DNA of 62,415 nucleotides, counting the filler, from Nitrospinota bacterium (GTDB lineage: Bacteria > JAUXIQ01): the NCBI GenBank assembly GCA_030620925.1. It is 11 parts of 11 records of this genome, joined end to end, with 100 filler letters (N's around TTAATTAATTAA, not from the genome) between each part and the next. Parts side by side here need not be neighbours in the genome. Positions count along the whole stretch, not along the records: positions 24,076 to 27,345 come from JAUXIQ010000340.1; 10 more parts are not named here. One strand, 5' to 3'. Both the position numbers and the translations under genes were made by a program. A model generated the notes under the pieces. The model did not search any database and was not told the origin of the DNA. It saw only the letters and a list, made by a program, of their open reading frames with translations. Positions 23,976 to 59,562 of the stretch are shown here, piece by piece. Numbering within the stretch: the first letter of the stretch is position 1; each line of letters starts with the position of its first letter.

Positions 23976-24075
23976 NNNNNNNNNNNNNNNNNNNNNNNNN
24001 NNNNNNNNNNNNNNNNNNNTTAATTAATTAANNNNNNNNNNNNNNNNNNNNNNNNNNNNNNNNNNNNNNNNNNNN
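23976..24075. other. Artificial contig spacer (also 27346-27445, 30578-30677, 35799-35898, 40595-40694, 43217-43316, 46340-46439, 51377-51476, 54974-55073, 59463-59562)
   Basis: Ten identical blocks of 44 N + TTAATTAATTAA (stops in all six frames) + 44 N; genes are cut at these points. Confidence 0.98.
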
Positions 24076-24076
24076 C

Positions 24077-24463
24077 ACGTTTATTAATTCACCGCGTCTG
24101 CTGCGCCCTACCCTTCAACTGAGGGAAAACGACAGCATCTTTTTCGCGGGGCAGATTACCGGCGTGGAGGGCTACGTAGAATCGGCTGCCGCCGGCTTGT
24201 TGGCGGGTATAAACGCGGCGCGGGTGCGAAAAGGGCTGGAGGCCGTCGTTCCTCCGCCCTCCACCGCGCACGGCGGCCTGTTATCCTACATCTCTAACCC
24301 GGAAAAAGAGGATTTCCAGCCTATGAACATGAACTTCGGGTTGCTGCCGCCTCTTTCCGAAAAAATCAGGGATAAGCGACAGCGTAGAAGGGCGATGGCT
24401 GAGAGAGCACTGGCGGATTTAGAGAAATGGGCCCAATGCCAGGTTATTCATATAGGCCCCTGA
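24077..24463 (+). CDS. trmFO: tRNA (uracil-54) methyltransferase TrmFO, C-terminal part (5' truncated)
   Basis: Frame is open from the contig start: TFINSP...FFAGQITGVEGYVESAA...FQPMNMNFGL. Confidence 0.92.
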   Translation, partial: TFINSPRLLRPTLQLRENDSIFFAGQITGVEGYVESAAAGLLAGINAARVRKGLEAVVPPPSTAHGGLLSYISNPEKEDFQPMNMNFGLLPPLSEKIRDKRQRRRAMAERALADLEKWAQCQVIHIGP

Positions 24464-24492
24464 TCGGCCTTTTAGTCTGAAAGGGTAACAGC

Positions 24493-25950
24493 TTGATTCC
24501 TCATCTAACAGAGTTTAATAGATATCTGGCCCTGGAGCGAAACTATTCAACCCACACCATAAGGGCATATATTAGAGATATCGAGCAACTCGGAGACTTC
24601 CTCAAGAAACAGGGAGCGCGTGACGCCGAAGGGTCTATACCATGGGATAACGTGGACCATCTCATGGTGCGGGCCTTCATGGGCAAACTGTACAGTTCGG
24701 GCATCAGCAGCTCCACGGCGGCGAGGAAGCTGTCCGCCATCAAGACCTTCTTCAAGTTCCTGGAGCGCGAAGGACATATCGACGTAAACAAAGTCCGGCT
24801 GGTCACCGCCCCTAAAAAAGAGAAGAACGTGCCCGTTTTCCTGACCGTGGACGAAGTATACGGGCTGCTGGGACTCACCCCCGATGCAGACCCTCTCTCC
24901 TTGAGGAACCGCGCCCTGATCGAGCTGCTTTATGCAACGGGCATACGGGTAGCGGAGCTTGTCTCCCTCAGCAAAAGAGACATGGATCTCCGCAGCCGCC
25001 TGGTCCGCGTGAAAGGCAAAGGGGGGAAGGAGCGGATCGTTCCTCTGGGTATACCCGCCGTCAAGGCACTCGAGGAATATATTGAACGTATGGGTGAGCT
25101 GCGAGGGAAACAGGGCGGCATGGACGCGGAAGCGCTGTTCATAAACAACAGGGGCAAGCGGTTGACCGACAGAGGAGTGCGCGACATGCTATCGCGCCTC
25201 ATCAGAAAGGGGGCCATGAATAAGAAGATCAGCCCGCATTCACTGAGGCATACCTTCGCCACCCATCTATTAAACGCCGGTGCGGACTTGAGGATCATCC
25301 AGGAGCTCCTGGGCCACGCCAGCCTTTCCAGCACCCAGATCTATACGCATCTGGAGCTGGACAAGCTCATGCACGTTTACGACCAGGCCCATCCCAGGGC
25401 ACGTAAAAAACCTGTCATCAGGTCCACCACGGTTCTGACCATGAGGCACAAAGGCCGGGTGGTCATGGCCAGCGACGGACAGGTGAGCATGGGTGATGTT
25501 ATAATGAAACATGGAGCCAGGAAGGTGCGCAAGCTTTTCGACGATAAAGTGCTGGCCGGTTTTGCAGGTGCAGCCGCCGACGCCTTCGCCCTCTTCTCCC
25601 GCTTCGAAGCCAAGCTGGAGGAGCATCAGGGCAACCTGACACGCGCCGCCGTGGAGATGGCCAAAGACTGGCGCACCGACCGCATACTCAGACGACTCGA
25701 GGCACTGCTGGCGGTGGCTGACGAAGAAAACATACTCATCCTCTCCGGCACGGGCGACGTCATAGAGCCGGACCAGGGAGTGATAGGAATAGGCTCAGGG
25801 GGCGGTTACGCTCAGGCCGCCGCCCAGGCACTGATGGAGAACTCCCAGCTCGACACTATACAAATCGCGAAAGAGGCCATGCGCATAGCGGCTTCTTTGT
25901 GCGTCTACTCCAACGAAAACATAACCATAGAAGAATTGCAACTTCAGTGA
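24493..25950 (+). CDS. xerC/hslV: Fusion: tyrosine recombinase XerC (aa 1-~303) + HslV/ClpQ protease (from Thr312)
   Basis: Xer[49 protein letters not shown]. Then, with no stop, RS-TTVL..DGQVS..ARK(33)..[18 protein letters not shown]. Sits in trmFO-xerC-hslV-hslU synteny. Confidence 0.9.
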
Positions 25951-25971
25951 AACAGGCATAGAGAAAACATC

Positions 25972-27345
25972 ATGGAACAGCTCACGCCAAAACAGATAGT
26001 CAAGGAACTGGACAAATATATCATCGGGCAGCATAAAGCCAAGCGGTCCGTGGCCACCGCACTCAGGAACAGGTGGCGCAGGCAGCAACTCCCCCCGGAG
26101 CTCAAGGACGAAGTTGCACCGAAAAACATCATAATGATAGGCCCCACCGGAGTGGGCAAAACGGAGATCGCCCGCCGCCTCGCCTCACTGGCCAGGTCTC
26201 CCTTCCTGAAAGTGGAGGCCACCAAGTTCACCGAAGTAGGCTACGTCGGGCGAGACGTGGAATCCATGATAAGGGACCTCACCGAACTGGCCAGGAACAT
26301 GATCCACCAGGAGAAAACCGAGGAAGTAAAGGAGAAAGCCAGGGTCATGGCCGAGGAGAGGGTGCTCGACCTGCTCATCCCTCCCACTCCTGCCCAGCAA
26401 AGAGAGTTCTCACTGGATGATGAGAAAGAAGAAGGTAGTCCAGTGGAAACACCCCTGGACAGTTACCAAACCACGAGGGAGAAGTTCAGAAAATATCTCA
26501 GGGAGGGAAGACTGGACCACCGACAGGTGGAGCTCGAAGTGGCCGACCGCTCCTCCCCCATGATAGAAGTTATAAGCGGCGCGGGAGTGGAAGATATAGA
26601 CATCAACCTTAAAGACATGCTGGGGAACATATTCCCGCAGCGCACCAAGCGACGGAAAGTGGACCTGCCCGAAGCACTGGAAATACTCACCGCCGAGGAA
26701 GCGGATAAGCTGGTAGACATGGACAAGGTCACCAAAGAGGCTCTGGAGCGCGTAGAGCAATCGGGGATCATATTCCTGGACGAGCTGGACAAGATTACCG
26801 GCCGGGAGACCGTGGCGGGGCCCGACGTCTCCAGGGAAGGAGTGCAGCGCGACCTCCTGCCCATCGTAGAGGGTTCCACGGTGGGGACCAAATATGGTAT
26901 GGTAAAGACGGACCACATCCTGTTCATAGCCGCAGGGGCGTTTCATGCATCCAAACCCTCAGACCTCATCCCCGAGATGCAGGGGAGGTTTCCCATACGC
27001 GTGGAGCTGGGTTCGCTGGGTAAGGCGGAGTTTATCAAGATACTCACCGAACCCCAGAACGCACTGATAAAACAGTATAAAGCGCTCCTGGAGACCGAAA
27101 ACATCCGCCTCAACTTTACTGAGGACTCTATGGAGGAGATCGCCTCCCTCGCCGAATCGGTCAACGAGCGCACGGAGAACATCGGCGCGAGGCGCCTGCA
27201 TACCATAATGGAAAAACTGCTTGACGACATCTCTTACGAGGCGCCGGAAAGCGAAGAAGTTGAAATAACCATCGATGCCGCTTACGTCAGGGAAAAACTT
27301 GCGGATATCGCCAAGGACGAAGACTTGAGCCGCTATATTCTGTAG
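25972..27345 (+). CDS. hslU: ATP-dependent protease ATPase subunit HslU
   Basis: [17 protein letters not shown] pore motif, [14 protein letters not shown]-terminal DEDLSRYIL. Confidence 0.97.
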
Positions 27346-27445
27346 NNNNNNNNNNNNNNNNNNNNNNNNNNNNNNNNNNNNNNNNNNNNTTAATTAATTA
27401 ANNNNNNNNNNNNNNNNNNNNNNNNNNNNNNNNNNNNNNNNNNNN

Positions 27446-30577: not shown

Positions 30578-30677
30578 NNNNNNNNNNNNNNNNNNNNNNN
30601 NNNNNNNNNNNNNNNNNNNNNTTAATTAATTAANNNNNNNNNNNNNNNNNNNNNNNNNNNNNNNNNNNNNNNNNNNN

Positions 30678-35782: not shown

Positions 35783-35900
35783 TTGTGTCTTTGTGGTCNN
35801 NNNNNNNNNNNNNNNNNNNNNNNNNNNNNNNNNNNNNNNNNNTTAATTAATTAANNNNNNNNNNNNNNNNNNNNNNNNNNNNNNNNNNNNNNNNNNNNAC

Positions 35901-40594: not shown

Positions 40595-40695
40595 NNNNNN
40601 NNNNNNNNNNNNNNNNNNNNNNNNNNNNNNNNNNNNNNTTAATTAATTAANNNNNNNNNNNNNNNNNNNNNNNNNNNNNNNNNNNNNNNNNNNNC

Positions 40696-43216: not shown

Positions 43217-43467
43217 NNNNNNNNNNNNNNNNNNNNNNNNNNNNNNNNNNNNNNNNNNNNTTAATTAATTAANNNNNNNNNNNNNNNNNNNNNNNNNNNN
43301 NNNNNNNNNNNNNNNNCAAAAACACACTTTTCCGACAGTCTCGCTATCTATTAACGCTTTTTAATGGCTCAAAAGGTTTCGATAACCAGATGAATTCTTG
43401 AGTTTTGAAAAGTCATGATCATGATATTGTAAGATTCCATTAACTCTGTTGGTTAGAAATCCCCTCA

Positions 43468-46337: not shown

Positions 46338-46439
46338 TGNNNNNNNNNNNNNNNNNNNNNNNNNNNNNNNNNNNNNNNNNNNNTTAATTAATTAANNNNN
46401 NNNNNNNNNNNNNNNNNNNNNNNNNNNNNNNNNNNNNNN

Positions 46440-51356: not shown

Positions 51357-51476
51357 TCTCCCCTCCTTTGCTTATCNNNNNNNNNNNNNNNNNNNNNNNN
51401 NNNNNNNNNNNNNNNNNNNNTTAATTAATTAANNNNNNNNNNNNNNNNNNNNNNNNNNNNNNNNNNNNNNNNNNNN

Positions 51477-54973: not shown

Positions 54974-55261
54974 NNNNNNNNNNNNNNNNNNNNNNNNNNN
55001 NNNNNNNNNNNNNNNNNTTAATTAATTAANNNNNNNNNNNNNNNNNNNNNNNNNNNNNNNNNNNNNNNNNNNNGAATTTTTTGTGTGCACTTGATGTCGT
55101 ACATTATATTATTGTGTATCAGGTTATTGTAAGATTCTAAATTAAATTATCACATTCCTGCCATTTGTCAAATTTAAAACAGGGCTTCGGTTTGGAAAAT
55201 TTGTGGTGAAGGGTTGTTTCCGGAATAGACGACAGCAGATAAGAAGAAAGGAACGCTGAAA

Positions 55262-59462: not shown

Positions 59463-59562
59463 NNNNNNNNNNNNNNNNNNNNNNNNNNNNNNNNNNNNNN
59501 NNNNNNTTAATTAATTAANNNNNNNNNNNNNNNNNNNNNNNNNNNNNNNNNNNNNNNNNNNN

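Follow-up and report, generated by a model that had tools for sequence, protein, structure and literature searches.

How can a protease that requires a free alpha-amino group on its catalytic residue, Thr1, be encoded as the second half of another enzyme? The question is raised by a gene in a stretch of 62,415 nucleotides from a Nitrospinota bacterium (assembly GCA_030620925.1; the whole stretch is called the window below), in which the recombinase XerC and the protease HslV share a single open reading frame (ORF) of 485 aa (24493..25950, + strand), with a TTG start, an AAGGG 7 nt upstream of it, and a TGA stop at 25948-25950. The ORF comprises a XerC tyrosine recombinase domain (24493..25401; aa 1-303, ending in HPRA), the linker RKKPVIRS (25402..25425; aa 304-311) and an HslV protease domain (25426..25950; aa 312-485, 174 aa, 18.8 kDa), all on the + strand, and in its primary translation product 311 residues precede Thr1. 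The gene for the AAA+ partner, hslU, is separately translated and intact, with its ATG at 25972, 21 nt after the fusion stop. An earlier note on this DNA had described a full XerC joined by eight residues to a full HslV from Thr312, with hslU 21 nt downstream, and had proposed that the product is a polyprotein that cuts itself apart. The ORF listing, the Pfam matches and the codons of the junction agree on this arrangement, and the distance to hslU is as described.

Two Complete Enzymes in One Reading Frame

Each half of the fusion is an ordinary member of its own family, and the architecture is the new part. For aa 1-303, membership of the XerC/XerD family is indicated by the domains Phage_int_SAM_1 (PF02899; aa 6-94, E 1e-20, 74.2 bits) and Phage_integrase (PF00589; aa 116-287, E 2.1e-49, 168.1 bits), by the alignment of residues 5-295 with the XerD structure 1a0p (E 7e-53), and by a complete R-K-H-R-H-Y set (R152, the lysine of KGGKER, H249, R252, H275 and Y284). 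It is the only tyrosine recombinase that was found by tblastn in the window. For aa 312-485, assignment to the HslV/ClpQ family (MEROPS T1B, PF00227) is indicated by a Proteasome profile match (PF00227; aa 310-480, E 6.8e-27, 94.8 bits vs. a cutoff of 22.4), by solved structures, by the adjoining hslU, and by the catalytic residues, which comprise Thr1 (T312), Asp17 (D328), Lys33 (K344), Gly45 and GSG (G434-S435-G436). Thr312 is aligned to residue 1 of the mature HslV structures 1m4y_A, 1e94_A and 1ned_A (T. maritima and E. coli among them; E about 1e-63), with residues 312-482 matching residues 1-171 of 1m4y_A at E 1.9e-63. All residues that the earlier note had called intact (R, K, HxxR, H and Y of XerC; Thr1, Asp17, Lys33 and GSG of HslV) were located.

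In an AlphaFold2 model (mean pLDDT 82.7, pTM 0.46; just 12 rows of the input alignment, A4, cover any of XerC), both domains are confidently folded, and aa 298-307 are the sole segment with a pLDDT <50. The model resembles two beads joined by a flexible tether, in that it predicts neither a fixed contact between the domains nor a set mutual orientation.

Reality and Conservation of the Fusion

The fusion is observed in further sequence data. Logan contigs of 4 runs from 4 studies, all of them sediment and marine-sediment metagenomes, were compared over 24493-26100; the window itself may originate from one of the 4 runs, and 20 rows from 12 studies contain at least part of the stretch, with no RNA data set listed among them. 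The junction is spanned by record 1 of run X1 (24493-25926; 13 substitutions), by record 24 of run X3 (24884-25712) and by record 17 of run X20 (25363-25526; 0 differences; the run is labelled RNA-Seq, but is probably DNA), and it is covered by records 11 and 13 of run X2 (25147-25425 and 25397-25744), in every case with 0 gaps. Over the compared region, the contigs of the 4 runs contain no insertions or deletions, and no variant letters are listed for them at 25358-25526, a range that includes 25380-25440, the part of the junction that the earlier note had singled out. Across the gene, 19 strain variants are listed, 13 synonymous and 6 non-synonymous, of which a few, at conserved spots, may stem from other organisms.

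Moreover, the same fusion occurs in six distinct proteins, which are encoded by contigs 2.1-22 kb long and were drawn from NCBI, ENA, JGI and Logan: P0001, P0122 (99% identical), P0121 (95%), P0002 (a 296-aa fragment, 89%), and P0003 and P0123 (76%). Their common junction reads HPRARKK[PAQT][VT]IRS/TTVL (here and below, a slash stands before Thr1), with I309-R310-S311 invariant in 6/6, positions 307-308 variable, and the catalytic residues invariant. The deepest pair of fused proteins is identical at 216/303 positions in XerC, 6/8 in the linker and 142/171 in HslV, i.e., the HslV part is more conserved than the XerC part (83% vs. 71%). Since the frame, the catalytic residues and this pattern of conservation are kept over the deepest divergence, the gene is not a dead one. 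All relatives with an HslV part at least 83% identical are fused (6/6), and a stop codon followed by a separate hslV start, which would point to an assembly deletion, was not found among them. The closest stand-alone HslV proteins (among the best 120 short proteins) are at most 77% identical, and are named NC10, Methylomirabilis and Rokubacteria by their sources. These comparisons establish a genuine, conserved fusion that is subject to purifying selection. It did not arise through a deletion in the assembly, nor is it a pseudogene of recent origin, and a small uncultured bacterial clade has it as a fixed trait.

Anatomy of the Junction

The junction consists of H300-P301-R302-A303, followed by R304 K305 K306 P307 V308 I309 R310 S311 and Thr312 (ACC, 25426), the linker codons being CGT AAA AAA CCT GTC ATC AGG TCC. 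Read codon by codon, the eight in-frame codons between HPRA and Thr312 include no stop, ATG, GTG or TTG, just as the earlier note had claimed, and the nearest in-frame canonical start 5' of Thr312 is the ATG at 25369 (M293), 19 codons before. The further claim that a single indel would not restore two normal genes is borne out as well: in the -1 frame, a TAA at 25404-25406 would end XerC as ...HPRAR and leave hslV without a canonical start, and in the +1 frame a TGA lies at 25436-25438.

In unfused relatives, XerC ends in HPRA-stop, HPRARKK-stop (L044), HPRARKR-stop and similar tails, and HslV propeptides read MKIRS, MIRS, MNIRS or MHKPIIRS. The linker can thus be read as a native-type XerC tail (RKK) that abuts a native-type HslV propeptide tail (PVIRS) minus its Met. 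Among 15 loci (L112-L126), the 10 with hslV detected have a xerC stop, a GGAGG-type ribosome-binding site (RBS) 6-9 nt before the ATG, and 2-7 further propeptide codons; examples are HPKAKLKKG-stop-DDMKIRS/TT and HPRAKKKD-stop-…ESMIRS/TT. Compared with these, what has been lost at the junction is, by all appearances, the xerC stop, the spacer with its RBS, and the hslV start codon. Indeed, an RBS and ATG before hslV, as in the relatives, are not present in the fusion, where the only purine-rich match near the junction is an AGGG at 25396-25399, 17 nt before the nearest non-canonical candidate start, the ATC at 25417. A consensus-match scan found no promoter-like site within xerC upstream of the junction; the sole + strand site nearby (25476-25505, a consensus match only) lies downstream of Thr312.

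Two ways around a single continuous product were considered and discarded. Programmed frameshifting was rejected, as there is no in-phase X XXY YYZ slippery heptamer at the junction, and an alternative genetic code is irrelevant, as there is no stop codon to reinterpret. As a rule of thumb, transcriptional slippage requires a longer run than A6.

Propeptides of Related HslV Proteins

Whether Thr1 could be freed from an upstream sequence depends on how HslV matures in these lineages, and 57 hslV loci (from L001-L126) were examined for the residues before Thr1. An N-terminal extension is present in 57/57, and the Met-Thr type of E. coli in 0/57. Position -1 is always G, S or A (32, 17 and 8 loci, respectively), position -2 is R, H or K in 54/57 (31, 18 and 5), and position -3 is hydrophobic in 55/57 (I 24, F 10, M 7, Y 7 and L 5 among them). 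The I-R-S of the fusion (25417..25425, + strand), which would form P3-P1 of the predicted site Ser311/Thr312, fits this pattern. The nearest stand-alone HslV proteins have annotated extensions of 11-23 residues. Because a short propeptide precedes Thr1 in all 57 loci, the fusion can be regarded as a lengthening of an existing propeptide rather than as a changed mechanism of maturation, and endoproteolytic maturation is, to judge from these N-termini, the norm in this part of the HslV family. The earlier note had allowed for Thr1 exposure either by removal of Met or by processing of a propeptide: the latter route fits, whereas the former does not apply to these lineages.

As a side observation, 14 of the 57 loci have no in-frame ATG between the preceding stop and Thr1, some of them with a GTG or TTG, and in L046 and L065 the nearest canonical start is 18 codons upstream. 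This suggests that unusual starts may be frequent in hslV.

A Candidate Self-Cleaving Polyprotein

On balance, we consider it somewhat probable that the fusion is a polyprotein which cleaves itself at Ser311/Thr312, probably on binding of HslU-ATP, and releases XerC and HslV in a 1:1 ratio. According to this model, the normally adjacent operon genes xerC and hslV would have merged into a single gene with a 54-kDa product, in which, once the HslV domain has folded, its Thr312 would act as the nucleophile on the bond that links it to Ser311. This N-terminal-nucleophile autolysis, known from proteasome beta subunits and from HslV proteins with short propeptides, would most likely occur upon docking of ATP-bound HslU. 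The products, both presumably active, would be XerC of aa 1-311 (35.2 kDa), which retains the eight linker residues as a tail, and an equal amount of mature HslV (18.8 kDa), and the freed HslV could then assemble with HslU.

Of the earlier note's self-cleaving polyprotein, the fusion itself stands. The model of cleavage is further supported by the I-R-S before Thr312, which are ordinary HslV propeptide residues, by the catalytic residues and intact hslU that have been kept, and by the loss of the RBS and ATG that precede hslV in relatives; an internal start at ATG 25369 (see below) persists as a rival. The closest precedent is HslV (ClpQ) of S. aureus, in which an 8-residue extension is cut exactly before Thr9 in a reaction that requires HslU and ATP or AMP-PNP (Jeong et al., 2020; PMC7468587). 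In the same study, processing depends on the Thr itself, the T9A mutation abolishes protease activity, the processed amount tracks activity across mutants, and unprocessed HslV assembles poorly, being trimeric in solution and crystallizing as a twisted ring (PMC7468587). As described there for S. aureus HslV, the catalytic Thr of the fusion is not at position 2 and is preceded by an extension (PMC7468587), and the S. aureus chains 6kr1_A and 6kui_A align with the HslV domain of the fusion (E about 1e-56). Unlike the short extension of S. aureus HslV (PMC7468587), however, the one in the fusion has 311 residues and constitutes a complete, conserved enzyme, XerC, and its processing is predicted.

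Several considerations weigh against self-cleavage. We know of no HslV or proteasome propeptide that comes near 311 residues or is itself a folded enzyme. In the double ring of HslV, Thr1 points into the inner chamber, where twelve 35-kDa domains cannot fit, so that cleavage should precede double-ring assembly; this presumed order of events is the weakest step of the model. The cleavage itself is extrapolated from S. aureus HslV, of which only about 20% is processed in vitro (PMC7468587). Furthermore, an E. coli XerC-gamma protein with a 14-aa linker is recombination-active (PMC3130261), and since XerC of E. coli thus tolerates a C-terminal fusion, XerC function alone does not demand cleavage. 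A second, stand-alone hslV may also be present elsewhere in the genome.

A more far-reaching version of the self-cleaving polyprotein is possible, but doubtful: XerC might serve as a working 35-kDa pro-domain that keeps the polyprotein latent, with neither protease activity nor a double ring, until HslU-ATP triggers autolysis and a strict 1:1 release.

Relation to Known Systems

The fusion has the gene order and content of ordinary xerC-hslV-hslU operons, the type that is presumably represented by codV-clpQ-clpY in B. subtilis, and the short propeptides encoded there end in the same motif; in contrast to these operons, it has no stop, RBS or ATG at the junction and forms one ORF. With the beta precursors of the 20S proteasome, it shares the fold family (PF00227), a small residue at -1 and the Thr1/Asp17/Lys33 chemistry; Huber et al. 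in 2016 reportedly described autolysis of such precursors at Gly-1/Thr1. Proteasome propeptides comprise tens of residues and have no independent enzymatic function, and the beta propeptide masks the active site until assembly, with cleavage following ring dimerization. Here, in contrast, a 35-kDa appendage would probably block ring dimerization before cleavage.

On the recombinase side, the nearest counterparts are the engineered proteins XerC-FtsK-gamma and XerD-FtsK-gamma, which carry a C-terminal domain on a short linker and retain recombination (Grainge et al., 2011; PMC3130261). PDB entry 5dcf, of the Xer-FtsK-gamma type, is among the structure matches of the fusion. They resemble the fusion in that a short linker joins a foreign domain to the C-terminal end of a Xer recombinase, but these constructs are artificial, with a 14-residue linker and a small regulatory domain (PMC3130261), whereas the present fusion is natural, with an 8-residue linker and a subunit of a ring-forming protease.

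Alternative Explanations

The alternative that survives best is internal initiation, which we nevertheless regard as rather unlikely. Ribosomes would also start at the in-frame ATG at 25369..25371 (+ strand; M293), which has a GGAG at 25353-25356, 12 nt upstream, and would produce a 193-aa, 21.1-kDa HslV precursor with a 19-residue propeptide that matures like those of the relatives, while the 54-kDa full-length protein would serve only as XerC or be a tolerated by-product. The length of this propeptide lies within the range of 11-23 residues annotated in the closest stand-alone HslV proteins, M293 is invariant in the six fused proteins, and XerC tolerates a C-terminal fusion in E. coli (PMC3130261). 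However, in unfused relatives, too, M293 and the Leu-Glu codons that form the GGAG belong to the ordinary conserved sequence of XerC (LMxVYD), and hence nothing marks an evolved start. In addition, 12 nt is a long spacing, xerC contains no promoter-like site 5' of ATG 25369, and the same cut at Ser311/Thr312 would still be required.

It appears clearly unlikely that the fusion is permanent, i.e., that it is never cut and that the HslV domain either remains silent, as an oligomerization or HslU-docking module for XerC, or is replaced by active HslV from another gene. Such a state would agree with the blocked Thr1 of the primary product, with a possible second hslV elsewhere in the genome, and with the XerC-gamma fusions that function in E. 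coli (PMC3130261). Yet, Thr1, Asp17, Lys33, GSG and I-R-S are invariant in the clade, although its XerC part has diverged by 29%; the HslV part is the more conserved of the two (83% vs. 71%), as is expected of a working protease, and hslU is intact alongside.

Separate translation of hslV from the ATC at 25417 (I309), with XerC-HslV merely an incidental read-through product, is very improbable. I309 is invariant in the six fused proteins, and translation table 11 permits ATC as a rare start codon, but there is no RBS at a usable distance (AGGG 17 nt upstream vs. 6-9 nt in relatives), Ile is the commonest residue at -3 anyway (24/57), and xerC would still have no stop, so that the fusion protein would be made regardless.

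Finally, it is barely credible that the fusion reflects an indel from assembly or sequencing, or an inactivating mutation of recent date. The metagenome contig is short (3,270 nt) and of low coverage, an A6 run adjoins the junction, and many other database fusions of the two families resemble frameshift artifacts. Against this, the junction is identical and free of indels in the 4 runs, each from a different study; the frame and the catalytic residues persist in six distinct sequences, the most divergent of which are 76% identical; the variants are 13 synonymous vs. 6 non-synonymous; and either frame shift leaves hslV without a start.

Distribution and Origin

Both PF00589 and PF00227 are present in 15 of the best 120 database matches. 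Outside the clade, most two-family proteins look garbled by frameshifts typical of high-GC or error-prone assemblies (16 sequences judged by eye); the two-family architecture search had been suggested in the earlier note. Two further sequences are clean-looking XerC-HslV fusions from other lineages: P0006 (455 aa, Logan; 50% identical), with the junction HPRA-RS/TTVL, and P0133 (a 219-aa fragment; 62% identical), with the junction …HPRARRKADDHELHG/TT. Each is a single sequence, and they may represent an independent recurrence of the fusion. P0005 and P0008 retain an internal Met ahead of the propeptide. P0010 (373 aa) has the reverse order, an N-terminal part of HslV followed by a C-terminal part of XerC, and is probably a chimeric assembly.

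Among the matches listed, none of 25 metagenome loci with a XerC C-terminus at most 400 nt upstream of hslV is a fusion (0/25); in 22 further metagenome hslV loci no xerC end was detected, some of which the regular expression may have missed. No close relative was present among the loci retained from at least 598 stretches in the metagenome contig scan. The genome contig scan contained none either, the best XerC being 49% identical, in a search whose exact 8-residue patterns would miss an 83% relative. In addition, 401 genomes were sampled from one phylum, which was chosen via the Desulfuromonadales metagenome-assembled genome with the best XerC match and may not be the phylum of the window. 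No uninterrupted xerC-hslV match was found in them among the 35 matches listed that span both domains (974 lower-scoring ones lie beyond); in 35/401 genomes, again among the matches listed, xerC and hslV are in the same frame, split by 1-3 stop codons. The metagenome locus L058 reads HPRA-stop-MDTIRA/TT. With xerC and hslV in one frame, few stops between them, and a junction of the L058 type one substitution away from a fusion, the junction seems predisposed to fusion. Fusions of operon neighbors are common.

In a representative protein library, no full-length fusion was found in the best 150 matches, a weak census in which the cluster of the window has no fused representative. Several top matches of this library (P0124, P0125, P0131, P0150 etc.; ~620-870 aa) have two separate regions that match the XerC query; by appearance, they are either double tyrosine recombinases in tandem or XerC joined to another large domain. 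The fused family was likewise not seen in the ESM Atlas, where XerC clusters only were returned, all with scores <0.9, again a weak census for a small clade. The earlier note knew of no description of this fusion, and none of a recombinase-HslV fusion was found in open-access papers and preprints; by text search, a survey of proteasome homologues is without the words fusion, fused, integrase and recombinase (PMC8665760).

Gene Neighborhood

The fusion lies on a contig of 3,270 nt (24076..27345), bounded by spacers at 23976-24075 and 27346-27445; the contig recorded for P0001 has the same length. The window is made up of separate contigs (~2.5-5 kb each) chained by ten N44-TTAATTAATTAA-N44 spacers, the others being located at 30578-30677, 35799-35898, 40595-40694, 43217-43316, 46340-46439, 51377-51476, 54974-55073 and 59463-59562. 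Because the window consists of joined contigs, true linkage is limited to a trmFO fragment, xerC-hslV and hslU, and gene neighborhoods that span spacers are not real. The trmFO (gid-like) C-terminal fragment (24164..24463, + strand) is truncated by the contig start, and its match to GIDA (PF01134) is marginal (profile positions 367-389 of 391, E 1e-4, 22.0 bits vs. a cutoff of 22.1). The hslU gene (25972..27345, + strand; 457 aa) has the Pfam domains AAA_2, AAA and ClpB_D2-small. We take the order trmFO-xerC-hslV-hslU to be that of Bacillus.

Implications

The maturation of HslV proteins with N-terminal extensions has so far been studied in one species, S. aureus (PMC7468587). The fusion offers a natural precursor as a convenient substrate, since a cut would shift the product from 54 kDa to 35 + 19 kDa and would be easily scored, and it could be used to ask whether autolysis can precede ring assembly and whether HslU triggers autolysis. 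A proteasome-family precursor with a complete second enzyme as its pro-region is, as predicted from its sequence, a new architecture. Many of the examined loci and genomes have the order xerC-hslVU, and so far nothing but this fusion hints, by gene fusion rather than by neighborhood alone, that the order may reflect a shared function. If the product is merely cleaved, it would be an example of an operon junction that has collapsed into a polyprotein, with a downstream protein that already processed its own N-terminus. If XerC acts as a latent pro-domain, the fusion would be the first natural proteasome-family protease with another enzyme as its propeptide, and a "Rosetta-stone" sign that HslUV and chromosome-dimer resolution are functionally linked; such a link could account for the widespread and as yet unexplained synteny of xerC with hslVU. 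It is this possibility, a regulated self-cleavage that would couple both functions, which makes the exciting part of the finding.

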